Below are positions 3,601 through 63,810 of a stretch of 64,000 bases of DNA, piece by piece. A model generated the notes under the pieces. It did no database searches and was not told the origin of the DNA. It was given only the letters and a program-made list of their open reading frames with translations. Positions within the stretch are counted from its first letter, which is position 1. Every line of letters begins with the position of its first letter. The DNA is taken from assembly GCF_003790525.1 (NCBI RefSeq), contig NZ_CP033635.1, one strand, 5' to 3'. Made by a program: the position numbers and the translations under genes. The stretch is from Escherichia coli. GTDB taxonomy: Bacteria > Pseudomonadota > Gammaproteobacteria > Enterobacterales > Enterobacteriaceae.

Positions 3601-4686
3601 ATATTCAAGCAGTGCTCTGCGCTTACCTAACTGCTCACGCAGAGACATCGCCTGGCCAATATGCGTTTGCAAACTATCCATGTTATCTTCAAGCTGTGTC
3701 TGTTCAACCTGAGCATCCCCGACAAAGGCTGCGAGATCGCGCATTGCTTCTCGGAAGCCATCATCCAGCAGTTGCTGCTGTGCCTGGATGCTTTCCAGCT
3801 GTTTAGCCGGATCAAGAAACGCCAGCCAGTTAGCCAGCACATCCTTCAGGAAGGACTCGTTACGACGAATCCCCTCTAACTCTCCCTGACGTTCAACTTC
3901 ATGCGCTACCAGTTCCCGCAGCCGCTCAGCCGCATCTTTAGACATGGTGCAGGCGAAGAACGCGCCAAGGAAATCATGTTCAGTTTTGTATTCGATAAAA
4001 CGGGTCAGGCCACCTTCTTCGGAGTTGAAGGTCACCATTGTTTTGATAAGATCAACGTTAATTTGTTGTTCCAGTAAAAATGCGCGCCACTCGTTCTGTC
4101 TGGTGGTTTTACGCCAATGCATACCGCCTTCACTACCGGCCTTGAGATTAAGCCAGCTATCAAAACTGCGCAGGCTATTGGCATAGGGGCGCAGCTCAGA
4201 ATTGCGTTCCGCGCGGGAATAAGAAGGGACTTCATCAAACGGCGCGCCCATCAGGGAGTCGGGCGCATCACAAATAAACAGTGTGCGGTCAACATCATCT
4301 CCATTACGCTGATGAGCATGTCCTAGTAATAACGTTTGTCCTGATTCATTGACCATCTCAACCAAAACAACAGAGAGTTCTTTATAGAAGTAATTGCGGT
4401 AGTGGTATTCACTCTGGCGATGATTTGCCAGATATTGGGTGAAGTCACTAACGGACGGCTCAAAAATCGATAACAGCAGCGCGATGTAGGTCGACTTACC
4501 ACCCCCATTCACAAGCTGCTGATAAGTACTGGTCACCACCTTCGCATTCCTGACGGGCGAGCGCAGGCCTTCAACAACAGGGCTACTGACCGCTTGAGAC
4601 AGGCCAATATAGTCCAGTGTGAGGTCCTTGTAGAAAGCTTCTTCATGGCCTGCACCATCCATATAAACCCGTTTAATCAGCCACAT
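601..4686 (-). CDS. SMC-like P-loop ATPase with long coiled-coil arms (JetC/MksB/MukB-like); 3' end runs into the IS, probably C-terminally truncated
   Basis: 1361-aa ORF; N-terminal P-loop LVNGGGKSTY; >1000 aa of E/Q/K/L/R-rich heptad-like sequence; no C-terminal signature/Walker B head visible; last 4 codons and the stop (601..614) are IS-derived. Confidence 0.5.
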   Translation of the reverse strand: MWLIKRVYMDGAGHEEAFYKDLTLDYIGLSQAVSSPVVEGLRSPVRNAKVVTSTYQQLVNGGGKSTYIALLLSIFEPSVSDFTQYLANHRQSEYHYRNYFYKELSVVLVEMVNESGQTLLLGHAHQRNGDDVDRTLFICDAPDSLMGAPFDEVPSYSRAERNSELRPYANSLRSFDSWLNLKAGSEGGMHWRKTTRQNEWRAFLLEQQINVDLIKTMVTFNSEEGGLTRFIEYKTEHDFLGAFFACTMSKDAAERLRELVAHEVERQGELEGIRRNESFLKDVLANWLAFLDPAKQLESIQAQQQLLDDGFREAMRDLAAFVGDAQVEQTQLEDNMDSLQTHIGQAMSLREQLGKRRALLEYDLVQHRFNKQKAIVDALQDEADTNQRQIEITHAAIDYKAYAKALNEYRQADEDLKVFQSETERPLQVIFERTAGEALGTLEWAIDRHRQQEATLEEELGQMDRESHVLRQSYDKIQKTLGGLETERDGYKRDKFQGESQRNELCEAGLIQKDETPVAAQYRLELTLRDAKQSEELANTILHQKEQALEAQLNVVREASIEKSEAQQKLILAEQKHQSAVDSALVLAKNYQKLPTSTRHDLDIEDTSWHSELCGLQLDKVLNANAQTLNGMKERLLQARHELDELRVTGHELVAKQVNEALEAFYAAGIARDKLWTFPHYLASAYNDDAQKIAAVIDQNPGRYLSLVALDNVTFEQVHKISEILPWKKAPIAIYLLDEAQDLRRETSELVQVVLSNPDKHGYSQAAYETRLQDLENTVASQEVSVKATESALKVLESFRNDWSRHYEQYGKHWAGLLDQRELALLILENADAALKQAEHDEQTLRDEKRDVQVRLNNAQQQKIQAEKAHDKVSLFVEKEWAKRETAIMKLEQLAAQIQRSKNTLYTQRERLERLSELEKNKRSEKTLLIIQIGSWSNLCNEPFYSEITATEGMEGRSPEYAHEMAAQAHKKLLEAANGDQVTVLKQQLKDAEQVQRYASDRLTAQPTYNTYPDEVKAAAINELTVINNSIVRLKEQQKQFTQNLISSQVTLQKFSQSCEEASKALDEDFVWEEKPIEIEAIQTSLAEIVNNLYAIEHQIKFLLEQKTLLLRKIENVKERLQNAKTAQAMIQPITPSSAAGLPGRILSITEYADDLAAQCQVYAGLNETLKQQNMRVSTVWGKFRKRIEEELAKDPDARASQEYLRQLDSIATYHEVLGDLERVGTGISQVFEAVQDSLEQFQRSIDLTVTHLTAHLEGAIKLLRRAMSVKIPEDCPVLPGRPIIKMTDRLNDVAADLRGFASSRLQQWIARGQIPRAPNRDALTADLVQSVFGEGELEVRLLKTNASRPQWTPVTRRACT

Positions 4687-7229: not shown

Positions 7230-8123
7230 ATGTACTACTCAAAGTTTCTTGAGAAACACAAATCCCCCCTCAGCCACGCACAATGGTTGCGCTTGCGCTA
7301 TATTGAGCGCCAGCTACTGTGGGAACGAAAGGTCACTTCGCGCATGATTGCTGAAGAGTTTGGCGTCTCGGCGCAACAAGCTCGTACTGATGTAAGAACC
7401 TATATGGAGGTCGCTCCAGGCAATGCTATTGAGAAGGGGGCCGGCCGAAAAGGGTATTTCCCCAGTACGACGTTTACGCCTGTTTTGCTGGGAGACAACG
7501 ATCTGGTCTGGCGTACGACGGTAGAATTTCAACCGCCGCAAGCGGCCCACGCGCAGGAAATCCCGCTCATCCATCGCGCAGTGCATAGCCGCACGCTGGC
7601 AATTTTTTTGTCAGCAATCGAACAGAAAGGACAAGTAAAAGTGACTTATGCGTCAATGGAAAACCCGGAAGGCATATCTCGTACACTAAGCCCTACGGTA
7701 ATTATCACCGTTAACGGGCGTCAGCATGTGCGAGCCTATGACTGGGGAAGTTCGGCGTTTAAGGACTTTGTTTTGGCGCGATTTCTGGACTTGCCGGAAC
7801 TGATTGTTCCTGCACCCGCCCCGCCACGCAAAGATACCGCGTGGGAGGTCATAATCCCCGTGCGTTTTATAGCCAATCCAACACTAAACAAAGCGCAACA
7901 AGAGGTAATTAAGCGGGACTATTTACTTGAACCCTCTGAATTCAACATTCGTGCACCAATGATTTTTTATTTATGCCCTGAAAACAATCTGCCTAAAACA
8001 GATGATGAATATGCACAAGCTACTGACGCCAGCAGCCACGGCCCCTTTATCTACCCTGTTCTAGCTGTGCACGCCCAAACAGGGGAGCCTATTCATAAGT
8101 ACCGCCATGCAGGTGAGAGATAG
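7230..8123 (+). CDS. Putative HTH-WYL-type transcriptional regulator (BrxR/CapW-like architecture)
   Basis: 297 aa; N-terminal HTH-like segment (SRMIAEEFGVSAQQARTDVRTYME); central region resembling a WYL domain; divergent from the SMC-like operon. Confidence 0.45.
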   Translation: MYYSKFLEKHKSPLSHAQWLRLRYIERQLLWERKVTSRMIAEEFGVSAQQARTDVRTYMEVAPGNAIEKGAGRKGYFPSTTFTPVLLGDNDLVWRTTVEFQPPQAAHAQEIPLIHRAVHSRTLAIFLSAIEQKGQVKVTYASMENPEGISRTLSPTVIITVNGRQHVRAYDWGSSAFKDFVLARFLDLPELIVPAPAPPRKDTAWEVIIPVRFIANPTLNKAQQEVIKRDYLLEPSEFNIRAPMIFYLCPENNLPKTDDEYAQATDASSHGPFIYPVLAVHAQTGEPIHKYRHAGER

Positions 8124-20978: not shown

Positions 20979-21063
20979 TGGTGCCGAAGGCCGGACTCGA
21001 ACCGGCACGTATTTCTACGGTTGATTTTGAATCAACTGCGTCTACCGATTTCGCCACTTCGGC
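20979..21063 (-). tRNA. leuX: tRNA-Leu (anticodon CAA)
   Basis: 85-nt cloverleaf on the minus strand (GCCGAAGTGGCGAAATCGGTAGACGCAGTTGATTCAAAATCAACCGTAGAAATACGTGCCGGTTCGAGTCCGGCCTTCGGCACCA). Confidence 0.95.
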
Positions 21064-54129: not shown

Positions 54130-54549
54130 GTCATACTCTCCTTTCGTTGTTATCGCCCAGAAGTAAAACTAACGTCATTGTAGGGAGCAGAAATGACAGA
54201 AATATTATGATTACGGTAGGGATAGCCGTTGCCGGCTTCCCCGCCATGTCAACGCCGGTATTTATGGTTTCTGTTTGCTTTTCTGTAAAAATAAAGGGGA
54301 GAGACGACGGTACTATAAACAACCATGATGAATCTCATCTATTCGGCCCAGATGAAAGACGCGAGTGAGGCTCTTGTTCGTTAAGCGGATACGTATATCC
54401 TGTACAATAATCAGATATACCTCACGGGGTCTAACACTTTATCATCAACGAGTTGCAGATCAGATAGTCATACGGTTGCTGCGTGCTTTAGCTGGCTGAA
54501 TACAGCCTGAAATCATCACCGTAATGACATGATGCCCAGCACAGCCTTA

Positions 54550-55200
54550 CCTTTCTGGCGGCGATGGCCACAACAGCGCGTCAGTATTCTCTGCGTTCAA
54601 CCAGTGAACAGACCCAACGACTGAATGAGTCAGTCCTTTTCTCAGCACCAATCAGTACTGAACGAGCCCCCTGAACCAGAAGCATTCGCAGATACGAATC
54701 ACCGGCTTTTGTTATCCTGCCCAGCTTCGACATTCAGCCGCTGCTGTATTGTGATAGCGTCAGCCCAGCCAGGCTGCCAGTTGCCGTCCCTTTTTAAAAT
54801 CATGTGCATTACCGATACAGGCAACCAGCGCACAGGCTGTTGTGGGACCAACTCCTTTTAGCTCCATCAGCTGTTTAATACGGATATCATCCCTTGCAGC
54901 CTCATGAAGACGGTGGTCATGAGACGATATGAGTTCATTTTACTCTGACAGTTCGCACAACAAACGGATGAAGGGTCATTCCACTGCCCCTGGACAGTAT
55001 TCCCTGCTGGATTTTACGCACGTGCCTTATCCCCACAGGCAGCAGCAGACCAAATTCACTCAACAGCCCCCGGATTTCATTACGCAACGCCGTTCGCTCG
55101 CGGATGATTCTGGCCCGGACCCGGTATTCTTCCTGTAACGTCTGCTGGGATTCCGATATGAAAACAACAAATCGCATGCCGGGCCTGCTGACGGCCTCAC
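54550..55200. mobile_element. IS110-family transposase remnant
   Basis: Fragmentary frames (e.g. RNEIRGLLSEFGLLLPVG) typical of IS110-family C-termini; no intact ORF. Confidence 0.4.
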
Positions 55201-55623
55201 AGATGGCAGCTGCATTATTAGCGTCGTTTTTGTTACCTTTGAGATAAGATTTGACAAGTTTCTACGGAATAATGCGCACGGTAGGCCCCATACGGAATGA
55301 GTTCCCGTGCCCAGAATGGGAAGAGCCACAGACTTCGATGCTGATGAGGCAGGGAGAAAGCCCGGAGAAAAACGTCATCATGTGGGGAGGGCTCAGCGTT
55401 TTTCTCCGTACCACTATTCATTGTGATCAACGCCGTGGATTTGAAAAACATTTTTCGGCAAGATCGAAACCAATACGATTAATATTCATGACTGACTTCT
55501 CCACCAGGGAACTGGGTACATCTCAGTCTGGAACGTTGATGCCGTAAGGAGGAAGATGTCAATCACATCGGCCTACACGCGATGTTAGCTCAGATAGGCG
55601 AAACGTATCCGACATTACACTGG

Positions 55624-56940
55624 TTAAGACTTCGTCGATTTCTCAAAGCGGCGTAGTAACTGATTCCCACGCTCAACGGCGGTATCCAGCGCCTGCTGTG
55701 GCGTCTTCTTACCGGTCCACACGCTCTCAAGCTCTTCATCCACAATCGCTCTGATCTGCGGCATGTTGCCCAGACGTAGTCCTTTGGTGAACGGTAACGA
55801 CGGTTTGTTCAGCATCTGACGTGTCGCGATATCCGCCCCTGGGTTTTTCTCATAAAAGCCCTGCTCACGGGTCAGGTCATACGCCGCTTTGGTGATTGGC
55901 AGATAACCGGTTTTCTGATGCCACTCGGCAGCATTTTCTGGCTTCGCGAGGAAGTCGAGGAACTTCGCCACGCCGGTATACGTTTCTTTATCTTTGCCCT
56001 GCATCACCCACAGGCTGGCTCCGCCGATAATGGCGTTTTGTGGTGCATCTTTCGCGTCAGCGTCGTAAGGCATCATGCCTACGCCGTAGTTGAATTTGGC
56101 GTACTCGCGAATGCTGGCAAGAGAACCAGAAGAGGCAGTCGTCATTGCGCAATCACCGTTATAGAACTTCTCGGTGGATTCATCCTTACGCCCGACGTAG
56201 CTGAAATCGCCTTTCTTGTTCATCTCTTCGAGCATGGCGATGTGTTTCACCTGCTCCGGCTTGTTGAACTCCAGCACCGCATCTGTGCCGTCAAAGCCGT
56301 TGTTTTTGCTGGCAAACGGCAGACCGTTCCAGGCGCTAAAGTTTTCCAGTTGGATCCAGCCCTGCCAGCCGCTGGAGTAGCCGCACTTCATACCGGAGGC
56401 TTTCAGTTTCGCGGCATAGTCCGCCAGATCCTGCCAGGTTTTCGGCGGCTGTTCCGGGTCTAATCCTGCTTTCTTGAAAGCATCTTTGTTGTAATAGAGA
56501 ACAGGAGTCGAGCTGTTGAACGGCTGGGAGAGTAAGTGTCCCGTTTTGCTGTCGGAGTAGTAGCCTGAAACCGTCGGCACAAACTGCGACTCATCAAAGT
56601 TAATCCCCGCCTCTTTAAACACGTCATACACCGGTTTAATGGCTTTCGACGCCATCATGGTGGCGGTGCCAACTTCATAAACCTGCAAAATAGCCGGAGC
56701 GTTACCGGTACGAAATGCTGCGATCCCCGCACTTAAACTCTCTTCGTAGTTGCCTTTATAAGTCGGTATAATTTTGTAATCCGGGTTTTCGGCGTTAAAA
56801 CGTTGGACCAGAGAATTCACCTCTTTACCCAGTTCCCCTTCCATAGAGTGCCAGAACGGAATGGTCGTCACTGCCTGTGCATTCCCCATTAACGTCAGTC
56901 CGAGCACCAGTGCTGAAGCTGTATAATGTAACGGTTTCAT
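55624..56940 (-). CDS. ugpB: sn-glycerol-3-phosphate ABC transporter periplasmic binding protein
   Basis: 438 aa, [23 protein letters not shown]...; near-identical to E. coli UgpB as I recall; no ugpAEC downstream. Confidence 0.85.
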
Positions 56941-57073: not shown

Positions 57074-57412
57074 ATGACAGAGCAGTGACGGCACAGGTGA
57101 GACGTGGTGGATTGAATTTGATCCTGCTGTTGACAGTGAAATCCGCAAGACATGTCCGGCAGTGATCGTGAGCAATGACGCAGCAAACAGGAACCTCGCT
57201 CGAGTAGTCGTCGTTCCTCTGACCAGTAACACAGAGCGAGTGTATCCAAGTGAGGCTGTTGTGACCGTAGGTGTCAGAGCAGCAAAGCGATTGTAGAGCA
57301 GATTATGGCGGCGGATAAGTCCTGTCTCAAAACACATATTGGCTCGTTGTCCAAAGCAGATATGTTGTCTGTTGAGGACGCAATCAAGATCCATCTTGGT
57401 TTACTGCGGTAA
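57074..57412 (+). pseudogene. MazF/PemK-family toxin, frameshifted
   Basis: Frames WWIEFDPAVDSEIRKTCPAVIVSNDAANRNLARVVVVPLTSN and SKAIVEQIMAADKSCLKTHIGSLSKADMLSVEDAIKIHLGLLR are offset by 1 nt; no in-frame start. Confidence 0.65.
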
Positions 57413-58129
57413 CGCCATGTGAATCTGTCGGCTACCGCCATTAGTGACGGAATTTTCTGTGGGGCAGCGTACCAATGGCATTCGGTTAAGTTCTTGCTGG
57501 AGCATCAAAAGAGTTCCAGCGCGTTCTGGGCCGTACATATTTTCGTGGGTAACACCTCCCTGGCCTTACTCGCTGAGTCATACAACTGCGATCGATTCAG
57601 ATGCCATTTTGCAATCAGCCTCTCAGAAAGAGCGCAACAGAATGATTTTAAATGTTTTCCTGTTACCCGAATCAGTAAAGACAAGTACCTCACTACGAGA
57701 AACAAGCAGTTTTTGAAATTAAAATTTTGTTTATTTCTACTACTACCGATGAAAACGTTATTATCTTAATAATTAATGTCATTTCAGGATATCCATGTAA
57801 GGTTAAGTAATAATATATGAGCCTGTATTTTTATTTTACATCTTTCTCACTCTGTGAATGAAAATATTCAATAGAAAATTTGATTTGAATAATTTATATA
57901 ACTCTTCTATATTACATCAATGCCGATAGAAATCGTAAAAAGCTTCGTTTTCATAAAAATTTCTTTCAATAATATTTGTAGCTGGACCAGCCCCTTGAAA
58001 CGCCAGATAGTGGATGTATCTTAAAATAAGAGACAGGCTTGGATATATGTCTGACACTGGTTCTAATTTTGAGATGACTGGAACTTTGCCGGGGCTGTAG
58101 CTTCGTAAACGTAAAACTCCTCAGGAAAA

Positions 58130-58580
58130 AATTGGCATTATTCAGCAGACAATGGAGCCTGGCATGGCGGTGTCACATGTGGCGCGTTTGCGTTGTATTC
58201 AGCCCTGCCTGTTGTTTAAGTGGAAAAACAATCTCTGGAAGGAAGTCTCACTGCTGTTGCTTCAGGAGAGGGTGTCGTTCCTGCCTCAGAACTGCCTGCC
58301 GCTATAAAACAAATAAAAGAGTTACAGCTCTTGCTGGGTAAAAAACCATGGAAGTTTAGATCCTCAAAGAAGTGGTGGAGTATGCGCAATCGCGAAAATG
58401 GATAGCGCATGTGCCCTTGTTACCTTCGGACAAGGAATAGCCCCGGTAAGCCGTGTTCTGGGCGATACTCAGGCGGCAGTCCCTAAATGAAGGACTACCG
58501 TTAGTGAATGCAAAGCGCGTTTACCGTAAGCGTAAACTGACCGCCGTATGTAGCCATCAGACGAGAATTGGTAACTTAGA
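58130..58580 (+). mobile_element. IS2-like (IS3 family) orfA remnant with start of orfB, degraded
   Basis: Frames [34 protein letters not shown] and [12 protein letters not shown] resemble IS2 InsC; multiple frameshifts. Confidence 0.55.
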
Positions 58581-58695
58581 CGCCCATCTGATATAGACGG
58601 ACATCTAAGTATGGAATTACAGGACTGGCGAAAAGAACCTCGTAAAAACTATTTGAACCGCCCCGGGTTTCCTGGAGAGTGTTTTATCTGTGAAC

Positions 58696-59586
58696 TCAGG
58701 CTGCCAGATCATCGTTTCCGATGGAAGCATAATAAGCTTTTTCTGCTTCTGCCGGTGGGATATGGCCCAGCCTTTCCAGCAATCGTCGATTGTTATACCA
58801 GTCCACCCACGTGAGTGTGGCCAGCTCCACTTCTGTCCGGTTTTTCCAGCTCTTACGGTGTATTACCTCCGCTTTGTAAAGGCCATTGATGCTCTCCGCC
58901 ATCGCGTTGTCATACGAGTCACCAGTACTTCCTGTTGATGCCAGTAATCCGGCTTCCTTAAGCCGCTGTGTGTAGGCCAGCGATACATACTGAGAACCTT
59001 TATCACTGTGATGGACTGTGCCGGACGGTCGACGGGCCCATAACGCCTGCTCCAGAGCATCCAGCACGAATGTCGTTTCCATAGACGATGAGACCCGCCA
59101 CCCCACGATGTATCCGGCAAACACATCAATGATGAACGCCACATAGACGACCCCCTCCCATGTGCTGACGTAAGTAAAATCAGCCACCCACAACTGGTCA
59201 GGACGTTCTGCCACAAACTGACGGTTTACGCGGTCGCCTGCGGCAACGGCTTTCCGGCTGACGGTAGTGCGGACCTTTTTACCCCGGAGAACACCGGCAA
59301 GTCCCATAACCGCCATGAGGCGCGCCACTGTACATCTGGCTACCCTGATTCCTTCCCGTAACAACTGACGCCAGACTTTACGCACACCGTATACCTGATG
59401 ATTCCCATCGTATACGCGCAGTATCTCTTTCTTCAGCCAGTCATCGCGCTGCGCACGGGCACTGCGTTTATAAGGATGATGTCGCTGTTGCTGACAGTGG
59501 TAATACGTTGACGGGGCAATATGTAGTTCACTGCATACCGGTCCGACCCCGTACAGCTTACGCAGCTTATCCAGCAGTGGCATCAC
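58696..59586 (-). CDS. IS3-family transposase OrfB (DDE integrase domain)
   Basis: 296 aa; DDE catalytic core (WVADFTY...HHSDKGSQY...). Confidence 0.85.
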
Positions 59587-59909
59587 TTTTTCCAGAGGCG
59601 GTCGAACTCCGCCTTCGCAAAATAAGCGGAAGCCTGGCGAAGGATATCGTTACTGCGGCGCAGTTCACGATTTTCACGTTCCAGCTCTTTCAGACGCTGA
59701 CGTTCAGCGGTGGTGAGCCCGCCATCACCGCCTCCGGTATCCCGCTCATGCTGGCGTACCCAGACACGCAGAGTCTCCGGTGTACAGCCAATCTTTGGGG
59801 CAATGGAACAAATTGCCGCCCACTGTGAGTCATATTCGCCCTGACTTTCCAGAACCATACGAATCGCCCTCTGACGGACTTCGGGGGAAAAACGAGTATT
59901 TTTAGTCAT
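59583..59909 (-). CDS. IS3-family transposase OrfA
   Basis: 108 aa; HTH and leucine zipper ([16 protein letters not shown]). Confidence 0.85.
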
Positions 59910-59914
59910 TCTGT

Positions 59915-61003
59915 TTACCTCTTTCTCAGGGAGTTTAGTCTCCAGGATTCCCGGGGCGGTTCAACTTGTGATTTTTTCCCTTTTGCTGTCAGAGTTCGGT
60001 AACGAGAACACAATCGTTGTTGAGCTTTCCATGCAATATCTTTGGAATATTGTGTTACAGAGTCCGGTCGGTAATATATAAGCCATGCACCAACTTTTGC
60101 AGGTGTACGATAAGACCAGGCGGCTTCGTAAAGCAGACGTCTCAGTTCGCTGTTTCCAACTTTTGTTATTCCTCTGGGACGAATACTGTTTCCACTGGAA
60201 TATTCACCTGGCACCAGTCCCAGAAAAGCCATGAGCTGTTTGGGATTGGAAAATCGCGAAAAATCACCCAGTTCAGCAACCAGGGTTATTGCAATTAGCT
60301 GACCAACACCTTTTAGAGCCTGCAACTGGCAGACCAGATTGCACAGAGACCACTCAGGTAACAGGCGAGATATTTCCTGGTCGAGTTGAAGTATGCGATC
60401 TTCAATCTGCTCCAGACTTTGACAATAGTGTTGAAAAGCAATCTGCTGAGATGGCTGACTAAATGATTGATTAGCTAACCAGGTTCGATGTTTGCCGGTC
60501 CAGTGCTTCCCTGCATAACGTTTGTCTGTTCGCAATAGCATGCTCAGAATTCGCTGTCGGGCAACTCTGCTGTCTCGTTTAGCTGCTGCACGGGCTCTGA
60601 TTAGATCCCGCATAGCTTCATGAGTCAGGTCAGGGATCCAGACAGGGGTAAGTTCACCAGCCCGCAGTAACCTGGCAAGAGAAATTGCGTCCCGATGATC
60701 ATTTTTGATTCTGTCTGTCGGTGATTTTGGTATCCGGGAAGGGGCAATAACCTGGCATTTTATATTCATCGCTGTGAGTTGATGATATAGCCCAAAACCA
60801 CAGGGGCCAGCCTCATAGCAGGAAAGAATGTTTCCGTAAAGTCCCTGCAATTTTTGAAATAATCGACGTACAGCCTGGGCTTCGTTGTTAATCGTACCAT
60901 AATAACGAACTTCGCCAAGCCGTTCAGGTGCAGCAATAGCAACCGCCAACGTTTCTTTATGTACATCCAGCCCGATGTAAGCTGCAATATTTTCCGAATG
61001 CAT
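59915..61003 (-). CDS. IS110-family transposase, 3' end replaced by IS629 sequence
   Basis: 362-aa ORF; last ~16 codons lie inside the IS629 terminal repeat (<=59963). Confidence 0.7.
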
Positions 61004-61039
61004 AATGACCTCCTCTGGAATATCCCACCAATGCTATAG

Positions 61040-61252
61040 TGAGTATATAAAGGTCATACCATCTTTATGTTCTTTGGCAGCGATCACGGCGGCGAGCGTG
61101 GAGCACTGTTGTACGGGCTGATCGGCACCTGCCGTCTGAACGGTATCGATCCGGAAGCGTATCTGCGCCATATCCTGAGCGTACTGCCGGAATGGCCTTC
61201 CAACCGAGTTGATGAACTCCTGCCATGGAACGTAGTACTCACCAATAAATAA
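61040..61252 (+). pseudogene. IS66-family transposase C-terminal fragment
   Basis: ALLYGLIGTCRLNGIDPEAYLRHILSVLPEWPSNRVDELLPWN resembles the conserved IS66 TnpC C-terminus. Confidence 0.5.
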
Positions 61253-61269
61253 GCGTCAATACGGTGCTC

Positions 61270-61900
61270 CGTTGACGCTTACCGTTTACCGGATAATGAG
61301 CGAAAATATCCTGTTGTTACATGACAAACCATCACGACCGCAGCGGGAACATAAAGGCCGAATATCGGTAAGGAAAGCGACCAGCGTTGATGTTCTGATG
61401 GCTTTGAGTTCGGTTGCGATGATGGCGAAAAAGTCCGGGTTACGTTCGCTCTGGACTGTTGCGATCGTGAAGCTATCGACTGGGCATCCAATACGGGAGG
61501 TTACAATAAAGCGACAGTGCAGGATGTGATGTTAGGAGCGATAGAAAAACTCTTTGGCGATAAAGTACCGGAACAGTCCATCCGGTGGTTGACAGATAAC
61601 GGTTCAGCGTATAGAGCGCATGAAACACGGCAGTTCGCCAGAGAGTTGGATCTGGAGCCCTGCACAACGGCAATCAGCAGCTCTCAGAGTAATGGAATGG
61701 CAGAAAGGTTAGTGAAAACGATGAAGGAAGACTACATTGCGTTCATACCGAAACCGAATGTAATAACGGCATTGCATAACCTTGCATAGGCGTTCGAGAA
61801 TTACAATGAGAACCACCCGCATAGTGCGAGAATTCATCGTTCGTGTCCATCAATAGATGGACGCGATTGTTGCCAGACAGGACAACCACCACAAGACGGC
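61270..61900 (+). pseudogene. IS2-like orfB remnant (DDE transposase), frameshifted
   Basis: Frames [52 protein letters not shown] and AFENYNENHPHS match IS2 InsD segments across different frames. Confidence 0.6.
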
Positions 61901-61961
61901 ACAGAAGGAGCGCTTACGATGAATTTTACCGGACAATAAAAATTGTCCGGCTATTAATTAT

Positions 61962-63263
61962 TTACATCAGCCCTAGAAATTGTGGGATAAATAAAGAGAT
62001 TTGTGGAATGTAAGTGATCATCATCAATGCGACTAGCAATGCTGTATAAAAGGGTAGCAATGGTCTAAGCAAATGTTGAATCTTCACACCTGAAATAGAA
62101 CAACCAACAAATAGCGCACTACCCACCGGCGGTGTTAACAGCCCAATACAAAGGTTGGCCACCATCATAATACCGAAATGTACCGGATCCATTCCCAGCT
62201 CTTGTGCAATCGGCAAGAAGATTGGTGTGAAGATTAGTACAGCCGGTGTCATGTCCATAAAGATGCCGACAATTAATAAGACGATATTAATCAGCAGCAA
62301 TATGACCAGTGGGTTATCAGAAATCCCCATCAACGCGTCGCTGATCATATAAGGAATATCAGCATTGGTCATTGCCCAGGACATGCCCACGGAAAAACCG
62401 ATCAACAGTAATACAATCGAAGTGGTAACAACCGACTCCAGAATCAGTTTGGGTAAATCGCGCCATTTTACTTCCCGGTAAATCAGCACCGAGAGAATAA
62501 ATGTGTAGACCACGGCAATTGCTGACGCTTCAGTTGCGGTAAAAATGCCGCCCAGAATGCCGCCCATTACAATGAACACCAGAAGCAAACTTGGTAAGGC
62601 ATCCAGAAACGCTTTACATGCCTGAGCAAAGGTTGCTCTTTCTGAAAGTGGGTAGCCACGGCGTTTAGCAATAATGCCGCAGACTATCATTACCGCGAGA
62701 CCCATTAAGATCCCTGGCAAATATCCCGCCATAAATAGCGATGCTACAGAAACGCCGCCAGCTGTCAGGGAAAATACAATTAACACGTTTGAGGGCGGTA
62801 TCAGTAATCCAGTAATACAAGATGAGACGTTTACAGCGGTAGAAAATGCCGGATCATAACCTTCTTTGGTCTGAATGGGATTCAGTGTGCCACCAACGGC
62901 AGCAGCTGCCGCAACGGCTGAACCAGAAATGGAACCAAACATCATATTCGCCAGGACGTTCACATGACCAAGCGAACCAGGAACGCGGCCAACCATTACC
63001 TGGGCGAGGTTAATCAAACGTATCGCAATACCGCCGCTGTTCATCAGTGTTCCGGCAAAGATGAAAAAGGGGATTGCCAACAGGGCAAAGTTATCCAGTC
63101 CATTAGCCAATCGTTGCGAAACAGTGATTGCCGCGATATCCCAGGGAAACATCAACAGCATTGAAGCTACAGTCGCAATACCGATTGAGAACGAAATGGG
63201 CACACCAATAAAGACCAGCACAAAAAAACAGCCAAATAGTGTAAGCGCGATATAACTATCCAT
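61962..63263 (-). CDS. TRAP transporter large permease (DctM family)
   Basis: 433 aa, polytopic membrane protein. Confidence 0.85.
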   Translation of the reverse strand: MDSYIALTLFGCFFVLVFIGVPISFSIGIATVASMLLMFPWDIAAITVSQRLANGLDNFALLAIPFFIFAGTLMNSGGIAIRLINLAQVMVGRVPGSLGHVNVLANMMFGSISGSAVAAAAAVGGTLNPIQTKEGYDPAFSTAVNVSSCITGLLIPPSNVLIVFSLTAGGVSVASLFMAGYLPGILMGLAVMIVCGIIAKRRGYPLSERATFAQACKAFLDALPSLLLVFIVMGGILGGIFTATEASAIAVVYTFILSVLIYREVKWRDLPKLILESVVTTSIVLLLIGFSVGMSWAMTNADIPYMISDALMGISDNPLVILLLINIVLLIVGIFMDMTPAVLIFTPIFLPIAQELGMDPVHFGIMMVANLCIGLLTPPVGSALFVGCSISGVKIQHLLRPLLPFYTALLVALMMITYIPQISLFIPQFLGLM

Positions 63264-63775
63264 TAACTGGCCTCCTGCGCAGGTTGTTTCAGTTGTTGAA
63301 TGCTTTGATTAATAAAACACAAGGCATAAAACATCATCACCAATCCACTTAATGGCAGAATGATATATACGTATCCCATCGGTATTTGCATCGCGGCAGA
63401 TACCTGTGATGTTGCCAGTGTTTTATCAATTAATTTCAGGCCACCAGTCACAATGACCGAACCGGCAAAACCTAAAATGAGAATGTTAATGACTATACTA
63501 AGAAGTAATTGCTTGCGCTTATTCAGGGCGAGAGCAAATAAATCGATAGAGAGATGTCTCTGCGCGCCGACGGTATATGCAGCACCTAATAATCCTACCC
63601 AGATCATCAAAAAGCGTGCCAGCTCATCGGTTAATGTACTTGGCTGGTTAAGTACGTAGCGGCTAAATACTTGCCAGACTACGCATACAACCAGAGCAAG
63701 CATGACGGCGACAGAAAACGCGGCAATGACGCGGTCTACCGCAAGTTTCAGGCGGTTAAATATCATTGTAAGCAT
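63263..63775 (-). CDS. TRAP transporter small permease (DctQ family)
   Basis: 170 aa with 4 hydrophobic segments; stop overlaps the dctM start. Confidence 0.75.
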   Translation of the reverse strand: MLTMIFNRLKLAVDRVIAAFSVAVMLALVVCVVWQVFSRYVLNQPSTLTDELARFLMIWVGLLGAAYTVGAQRHLSIDLFALALNKRKQLLLSIVINILILGFAGSVIVTGGLKLIDKTLATSQVSAAMQIPMGYVYIILPLSGLVMMFYALCFINQSIQQLKQPAQEAS

Positions 63776-63810
63776 CCTGGAAAATCAGGGCCAGAGACTG
63801 GCCCGAAATA

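Follow-up and report, generated by a model that had tools for sequence, protein, structure and literature searches.

Elements of the insertion sequence cluster

The window analysed here, a 64-kb stretch of Escherichia coli DNA, contains five insertion sequence (IS) remnants that together occupy positions 57983-61918. An earlier note on this DNA had described a nested IS cluster at 58100-61900; the cluster itself stands, its limits are refined here, and all elements named in that note (an IS629-like element, an IS110-family open reading frame or ORF, an IS66 C-terminal piece and IS2-like pieces) are present and belong to several distinct ISs, as claimed, rather than to a single one. Overlooked at that time were a 128-bp left end of ISEc23 (58526-58653), an 8-bp target-site duplication and a second IS66-family end (61828-61918). 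Throughout, IS names are the labels that NCBI PGAP gives to near-identical copies and not formal ISfinder assignments.

The outermost layer is a decayed ISEc48-like element of the IS3 family, IS2 group, that lies on the plus strand in two halves. The left half (57983-58525) comprises an IS2-type left end beginning TGGACCAGCCCC, a degenerate orfA at about 58075-58440, interrupted by stops and frameshifts, and the beginning of orfB; the right half (61291-61827) carries the orfB catalytic region, also with stops, and ends ~95 bp short of the element's own right end. The IS2-like orfA and orfB pieces reported earlier on both sides of the cluster are thus readily recognized: the left half matches the IS2 TnpA model NF006928 (E = 2.3e-15) and the right half the IS2 TnpB model NF006918 (E = 2e-33), each under the full-length cut-off, as fragments. 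These similarities and the IS2-type end place the relic in the IS2 group, where it shows ~89% nucleotide identity to an ISEc48-labelled copy vs 70-75% to IS2 (75% for the left half). Unlike ISEc48 and IS2, it is pseudogenised, with a ~160-bp internal deletion, multiple stops and frameshifts and no intact ORFs, and here it also lacks a right end beyond 61827. An uninterrupted relic in E. coli strain 104, annotated there as a pseudogene, is 99.7% identical to the left half and 99.6% identical to the right half as far as 61828, where similarity ends. Its origin is an old insertion of an IS2-group element, with ISEc48 as the closest known relative, that later decayed; hundreds of genomes carry this relic, conserved and fixed at a single island position.

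Joined directly to the cut relic is the right edge of the cluster, the terminal 91 bp of a second, different IS66-family element (61828-61918; left end, reading GTAAGCG... on the minus strand). In strain 104 the left end of an IS66-family element matches this stub at 98.9% identity; in DETEC-S792 another such left end, with tnpA, tnpB and tnpC next to it, matches at 93.5%. A TRAP-transporter module comes after the stub, and the sequence from 61828 to 64000 is 100% identical to that of E. coli LH50-c. In a separate event, the relic lost its right end and became joined to the stub beside the TRAP-transporter module. Homologous recombination between the relic and the IS2 that LH50-c carries next to this stub was considered as the source of the junction and rejected; the window holds no IS2 right end, and the two elements are only ~70% identical.

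The sole intact member of the cluster is an IS629-like element of the IS3 family (58654-59963, minus strand), and the earlier description of a complete 1310-bp IS3-family element with intact terminal repeats proved accurate. Its imperfect terminal inverted repeats start with TGAACCGCCCC, and at 31 nt and 87% complementarity they form the longest inverted repeat in the region. Also intact are orfA (59583-59909, minus strand, 108 aa) and the overlapping orfB (58696-59586, minus strand, 296 aa), with HTH_Tnp_1, rve and HTH_21 domains and a transpos_IS3 score of 308 bits (cut-off 160). A full-length ALIL frameshift pseudoknot (59512-59628; 116 bits vs a threshold of 50) is the only significant Rfam match in the region. 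The element therefore has the orfA/orfB arrangement, programmed -1 frameshift and DDE (rve) domain of the IS3 family, and in length, terminal repeats, ORF sizes and ALIL it agrees with the IS629/IS1203/IS3411 group. It is 99.9% identical to a plasmid copy. The sole O157:H7 genome listed, ATCC 43888, has a best match at 95.0% nucleotide identity, and copies labelled IS1203 lie at 94.7-94.9%; at ~95% to both, the element is an isoform and not the canonical sequence. E. coli genomes carrying this same element have a median of 4 copies.

ISEc23 in the relic and ISEc45 in ISEc23

Between the two relic halves lie the ends of a single ISEc23, an element of the IS66 family. Its left end (positions 1-128, starting GTAAGCG) is found at 58526-58653 and shares 99.3% identity with the ISEc23 of E. 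coli O104:H4; its right portion (positions about 2313-2532) is found at 61063-61282, where 220 bp are 100% identical to the same reference, both on the plus strand. The right portion consists of the last 61 tnpC codons (61067-61252), which encode a DDE_Tnp_IS66_C domain (E = 1.3e-17), and the right inverted repeat ending GCTTAC. The inverted-repeat pair spans 27 nt with 81% complementarity, the left end pairing with 61259-61285. As is typical of the IS66 family, the GTAAGCG inverted repeats are bounded by a perfect 8-bp target-site duplication, CGTTTACC, at 58518-58525 and 61283-61290. Unlike a complete ISEc23, the remnant keeps only these 128 bp on the left and about 220 bp on the right; of the tnpA-tnpB-tnpC set, tnpA, tnpB and most of tnpC are lost. 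A 13-nt direct repeat, TTTACCGGA(T/C)AAT, also occurs after both IS66-type ends; by our own estimate, such a repeat is expected by chance in a region this large.

When the insert and one copy of CGTTTACC are removed, the reconstructed empty site gives a single unbroken match at 99.6% identity in 422 records from 402 E. coli genomes. Because the 8-mers are identical and the uninterrupted site exists in more than 400 genomes, the relic halves are one element split by ISEc23, which transposed into the relic orfB with its characteristic 8-bp duplication. The nesting proposed earlier is accordingly present, with ISEc45 inside ISEc23 inside the ISEc48-like relic, but the IS2-like and IS66 pieces are not the loose flankers they had been taken for. 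The former are halves of one relic; the short IS66 C-terminal fragment exists (61067-61252) but is not independent, being the right part of the relic-splitting ISEc23, cut off by a site-specific insertion of ISEc45.

ISEc45 belongs to the IS110 family and has an IS1111-type layout. A reference copy is 1447 bp long and has sub-terminal repeats; its CDS at 62-1195 is followed by 252 nt of 3' non-coding sequence. The window copy (59964-61064, minus strand) covers positions 1-1101 of 1447 at 98.6-99.6% identity to PGAP-labelled ISEc45 loci. Still present are the left end, where the sub-terminal repeat ATGACCTTT lies, and 346 of 377 codons. Compared with complete ISEc45, this truncated member has lost the final 31 codons, all 252 nt of 3' non-coding sequence (a putative seekRNA region) and the right end with its sub-terminal repeat; a C-terminal helix, the putative guide-RNA region and one end have gone. 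The IS110-family ORF (59915-61003, minus strand, 362 aa) joins the 346 native codons to 16 codons from the IS629 end. It retains the domain pair of the family, an N-terminal DEDD_Tnp_IS110 (PF01548, E = 1.6e-15) and a C-terminal Transposase_20 (PF02371, E = 6.9e-24), and scores 254 bits against NF033542 (cut-off 140).

The boundary between ISEc45 and ISEc23 falls within a shared CT at 61063-61064, a dinucleotide present at both junctions, and comparison with uninterrupted ISEc23 fixes the insertion site in tnpC as AAAAA-CT-TTATG (between AAAAACT and TTATG). The same left end at the same tnpC site is found widely: 857 E. coli genomes contain the ISEc45::ISEc23 junction, vs 864 that contain ISEc45 at all. 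ISEc45 therefore inserts site-specifically and without a conventional target duplication. Its arrival at this site may have preceded or followed the transposition of ISEc23 into the relic.

Such placement resembles the IS-in-IS targeting seen in RNA-guided IS110/IS1111 elements such as ISEc21, which goes into IS3-family transposase genes (Siddiquee et al. 2024, PMC11187229): virtually every ISEc45 occupies one short sequence within a transposase gene that belongs to another IS family. Circle formation and transposition of IS1111-type elements require a seekRNA encoded by their downstream non-coding region (PMC11187229), and the long 3' non-coding region of ISEc45 would specify a putative guide (seek/bridge) RNA. 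Folding of this 252-nt region in the reference copy is more stable than that of shuffled sequence (z = -2.7). An Rfam scan of it returned no matching IS110/IS1111 guide-RNA family, and a k-mer search for guide-target pairing between the region and its target gave matches of 6-7 nt at most, not above chance. On balance, we lean towards ISEc45 being an RNA-guided IS1111-type element whose target is a ~20-30-bp site in ISEc23-type IS66 transposase genes, and so a dedicated parasite of other ISs, although, in comparison with ISEc21-type systems, its guide RNA and the pairing with ISEc23 are putative and the relevant region is deleted in the window. If this is true, the window copy is a decapitated fossil, and intact copies elsewhere offer a ready-made guide-and-target pair.

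The ~2.5-kb deletion at the IS629-like element

The flanks of the IS629-like element, ...AAAAACTATT (...CTATT) on one side and ACTTGTGATT... (ACTTGTG...) on the other, show no 3-4-bp target duplication, a feature that distinguishes this copy from the insertions expected of its group. This absence leaves its family membership unaffected and indicates instead that the copy marks a rearrangement. The copy is bordered on the left by ISEc23 position 128 and on the right by ISEc45 position 1101; in the intact composite of strain MB19, ~2.5 kb separates these two positions. Because the target duplication is missing and the other flank is the ISEc23 left end, not the remaining ISEc45, the element marks a deletion of ~2.5 kb. 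From ISEc23 this removed tnpA and tnpB together with most of tnpC; from ISEc45 it took the final 31 codons, all of the 3' non-coding region and the right end. Both flanks are co-linear and keep their original relative orientation. Neither the missing ISEc23/ISEc45 DNA nor a second IS629 copy occurs elsewhere in the 64-kb window; the sole other match in the search for the missing DNA was an IS66-like stretch of ~130 bp at 76% (44335-44466). The earlier suggestion of a link between the IS cluster and rearrangement is thus upheld by the deletion adjoining this element.

Deletions of adjacent genomic DNA are a known effect of IS629 (PMC9943667). The IS629-like element would have entered the composite, with loss of the ~2.5 kb beside it, either through intramolecular transposition or aberrant IS excision that produced an adjacent deletion, or through recombination between two direct IS629 copies, of which one would have lain at ISEc23 position 128 and the other at ISEc45 position 1101. 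Since the product is identical either way, these routes are indistinguishable here. Among 5,426 complete E. coli genomes, none carries a single duplication-flanked IS629 at either junction and none carries both copies; because no such intermediate was found, how the deletion arose and in what order the elements arrived, ISEc23 and ISEc45 included, are inferred.

The rival model drawn from the earlier note has a simple transposition of the IS629-like element into the ISEc45 transposase gene near its 3' end, with no further event, by which the native C-terminus was replaced. The replacement is real, insofar as 31 codons were lost and 16 codons from the IS629 end were fused in their place, but simple insertion as its cause is very improbable. 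The right junction does fall inside the ISEc45 CDS, and simple insertions of IS629-like elements with 3-4-bp duplications are found at other ISEc45 positions in other strains, one of them 16 bp away on plasmid NZ_CP182372.1 with a 4-bp duplication and another in AH19K002 with a 3-bp duplication. A check for a 3-4-bp duplication at the window copy was nevertheless negative; the flank at 58526-58653 belongs to ISEc23 and not to the remaining 346 bp of ISEc45, contrary to what a simple insertion would leave, and the missing part of ISEc45 and the ISEc23 genes are absent from the window. The plasmid junction is the nearest IS629/ISEc45 junction in other genomes and represents a separate simple insertion. 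Equally improbable is an IS629-mediated inversion that placed the missing 2.5 kb elsewhere in the genome, beside another IS629 copy in inverted orientation. A target duplication would also be absent after an inversion between two IS copies, but the order and orientation of the flanks are those of the intact composite, inside one pair of ISEc23 ends and one target duplication, which is the geometry of a deletion; with no displaced segment or second IS629 in the 64-kb window, inversion is rejected.

Somewhat less remote, yet still unlikely, is an assembly artefact in which two direct IS629 copies ~2.5 kb apart in ISEc23::ISEc45 were collapsed into an apparent deletion. The junctions match the ends of a multicopy 1310-bp repeat exactly, a collapse would yield the same product as recombination between two copies, and the arrangement is unique in comparison with the 5,426 complete genomes. 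The window itself bears no sign of an artefact, since the sequence is continuous and free of ambiguity; finished or long-read assemblies seldom suffer such a repeat collapse, and genuine IS629-associated deletions are well documented (PMC9943667). A true deletion beside the IS629-like element is accordingly the reading adopted here.

Origin and annotation of the locus

Taken together, the locus is very probably an IS graveyard at the IS-rich edge of a leuX-associated E. coli genomic island, built by serial transposition and then reduced by deletion. The IS629-like element is the only member of the cluster that is plausibly still mobile. The biology is known and the locus is an ordinary IS pile-up, an illustration of remodelling at the IS-rich edges of E. 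coli genomic islands and of the way insertions accumulate in dead IS DNA. The whole arrangement had no match among the 5,426 complete E. coli genomes, nor did any of its three novel junctions (ISEc23/IS629, IS629/ISEc45 and relic/91-bp stub), and these strain-specific junctions are possible lineage markers. Beyond annotation the locus has little importance; within it, the "IS2-like" fragments are best annotated as a single split relic and the 362-aa "IS110 transposase" ORF as a truncated fusion pseudogene.

Nesting of ISEc23 within an ISEc48-like relic

The cluster at 57983-61918 is a textbook nested-IS locus whose elements and processes are all known; what is new here is confined to junctions peculiar to this strain and to how clearly the locus illustrates the specificity of ISEc45 for its site in ISEc23. 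All components listed in an earlier note (IS629-like, IS110-family, IS66 and IS2-like) were recovered by domains, models and identities, but the architecture proposed there, a simple insertion flanked by fragments, was only partly right. Fragments on both sides of the cluster matched the IS2 TnpA and TnpB models, and the IS2-like pieces at 57983-58525 and 61291-61827, formerly read as separate flanking fragments, are the halves of one element, a decayed ISEc48-like relic (IS3 family, IS2 group). When 58526-61290, comprising the insert and one of the two 8-bp repeat copies, is taken out, the reconstructed relic is one uninterrupted 99.6% match to 422 records in 402 genomes, for example strain 104, where the annotation gives a DDE pseudogene with a frameshift. 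Among named intact elements ISEc48 is closest to the relic (~89% identity), which lacks an internal stretch of ~160 bp by comparison; identity to IS2 is 70-75%.

The insert starts with GTAAGCGTAAAC at 58526 and finishes with GACGCTTAC at 61282, ends that pair as the region's second-longest inverted repeat (pair I2), and is bordered on both sides by a perfect 8-bp duplication, CGTTTACC (58518-58525 and 61283-61290). These ends match ISEc23 (IS66 family) of E. coli O104:H4, a 2532-bp element with its own 8-bp duplication, at 99% over positions 1-128, and the right portion of the insert is 100% identical to positions about 2313-2532; the ORF at 61067-61252 contains an IS66 C-terminal domain. A weak Rfam match to the AfaR sRNA (58484-58605, minus strand; 25 bits against a threshold of 100, E = 0.36) spans the junction of the relic with the ISEc23 left end, and is probably either fortuitous or explained by IS-derived sequence within the Rfam seed.

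ISEc45 and its target site

Both IS110-family domains lie in a 362-aa ORF (59915-61003) whose DNA is 98.6-99.6% identical to ISEc45-annotated loci. In strain MB19, which carries an intact copy of the composite formed by ISEc45 within ISEc23 tnpC, ISEc45 is 1447 bp long, with a CDS at 62-1195 (377 aa), a 3' non-coding region of 252 nt and sub-terminal repeats ATGACCTTT/AAAGGTCAT, and its layout is IS1111-type. Comparison with uninterrupted ISEc23 defines the site in tnpC as ...GGAAAGAAAAA-CT-TTATGTTC..., with CT at both junctions. Of 5,426 complete E. coli genomes, 864 carry ISEc45 and 857 have the identical tnpC junction; the site specificity of ISEc45 for ISEc23 is strong, and IS66-family transposase genes appear to be its almost exclusive home.

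Work on IS1111-type elements has shown that a seekRNA encoded in their downstream non-coding region is indispensable both for circles to form and for targeted transposition (Siddiquee et al., PMC11187229). The 252-nt region of ISEc45 (7613-7864 of the reference locus L001; absent from the window) is a candidate seekRNA: its predicted fold, a long-range stem, scores better than those of shuffled controls (z = -2.7). No Rfam family covers this region, and its comparison with the target yielded no convincing guide-target pairing. GTTCTTT and GAAAGA occur both within it and flanking the ISEc23 insertion site, matches too short to serve as evidence.

The deletion at the IS629-like element

The element at 58654-59963 (minus strand, 1310 bp) has termini forming the region's longest inverted repeat (pair I1). 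Both of its reading frames, orfA (108 aa) and orfB (296 aa), are intact, and it has IS3-family, rve and HTH domains and a full-length ALIL frameshift pseudoknot (116 bits). Full-length copies occur in ~3,000 of the 5,426 complete E. coli genomes, the best at 99.9% identity; among the matches listed, the best in the single O157:H7 genome is 95.0% identical, and NCBI-labelled IS1203 copies are 94.7-94.9% identical. "IS629-like" is a fair name, and of all elements in the cluster this copy is likely the only active one.

The simple insertion of IS629 into an IS110-family gene envisaged earlier does not account for its surroundings: the flanks (...CTATT and ACTTGTG...) show no 3-4-bp duplication, and the neighbours are ISEc23 position 128 on the left and ISEc45 position 1101 on the right. 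Relative to the intact MB19 composite, ~2.5 kb is missing: ISEc23 has lost tnpA, tnpB and the greater part of tnpC, and ISEc45 its final 31 codons, the whole non-coding region and the right end. The IS629-like element sits at the point of this deletion. An inversion was rejected because the flanks retain their original order and orientation within one pair of ISEc23 ends and none of the missing DNA lies elsewhere in the window. Insertion might have occurred at the ISEc23 site or at the ISEc45 site, either followed by an adjacent deletion of the kind well documented for IS629 (PMC9943667), or two direct IS629-like copies might have recombined; the three routes yield one product and are indistinguishable here. 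Other strains carry simple IS629-like insertions in ISEc45, at different positions and with 3-4-bp duplications, so repeated hits on the composite are common.

The right boundary and island setting

The relic ends at 61827, ~95 bp before its own terminus, and is fused to a 91-bp stub (61828-61918; compare positions 3960-4100 of locus L007) that represents the outermost left end of a different IS66-family element, lying in inverted orientation. In strain 104 the genes after the relic encode a TonB-dependent receptor and a DUF4198 protein; here the stub is followed by a TRAP-transporter operon (from 61962). A search of 5,426 complete genomes did not recover the relic/stub junction. E. coli LH50-c is 100% identical over 61828-64000 and carries an intact IS2-type element only 4 bp from the same stub, which suggests a loss of the IS together with neighbouring DNA, as in excision-associated deletions (PMC9943667); conjecturally, an LH50-c-type IS2 would have been lost along with adjacent DNA.

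The left part of the window holds the core idn genes, and a tRNA-Leu(CAA) gene (20979-21063), probably leuX, marks the boundary of a mosaic genomic island encoding integrases, a YadA-like adhesin, a PTS system, a phytase-like esterase and ugpB. The IS cluster lies 37-41 kb into this island, with ugpB (55624-56940) and a PemK/MazF fragment to its left. The latter, an ORF at 57162-57296 (44 aa as listed) annotated in strain 104 as a small toxin gene, has no obvious antitoxin partner and is probably a remnant. Just downstream of ugpB is a second, unrelated IS110-family transposase pseudogene (~54488-55489, minus strand), annotated with a frameshift and an internal stop in strains 104 and 135, where it is 99.7% identical. 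Similar island modules adjoin cadC in strain 135; such modules therefore move between tRNA-associated islands. Deeper in the island, ~130 bp at 44335-44466 shares 76% identity with the region just inside an ISEc23-type left end and may be another IS66-family scrap.
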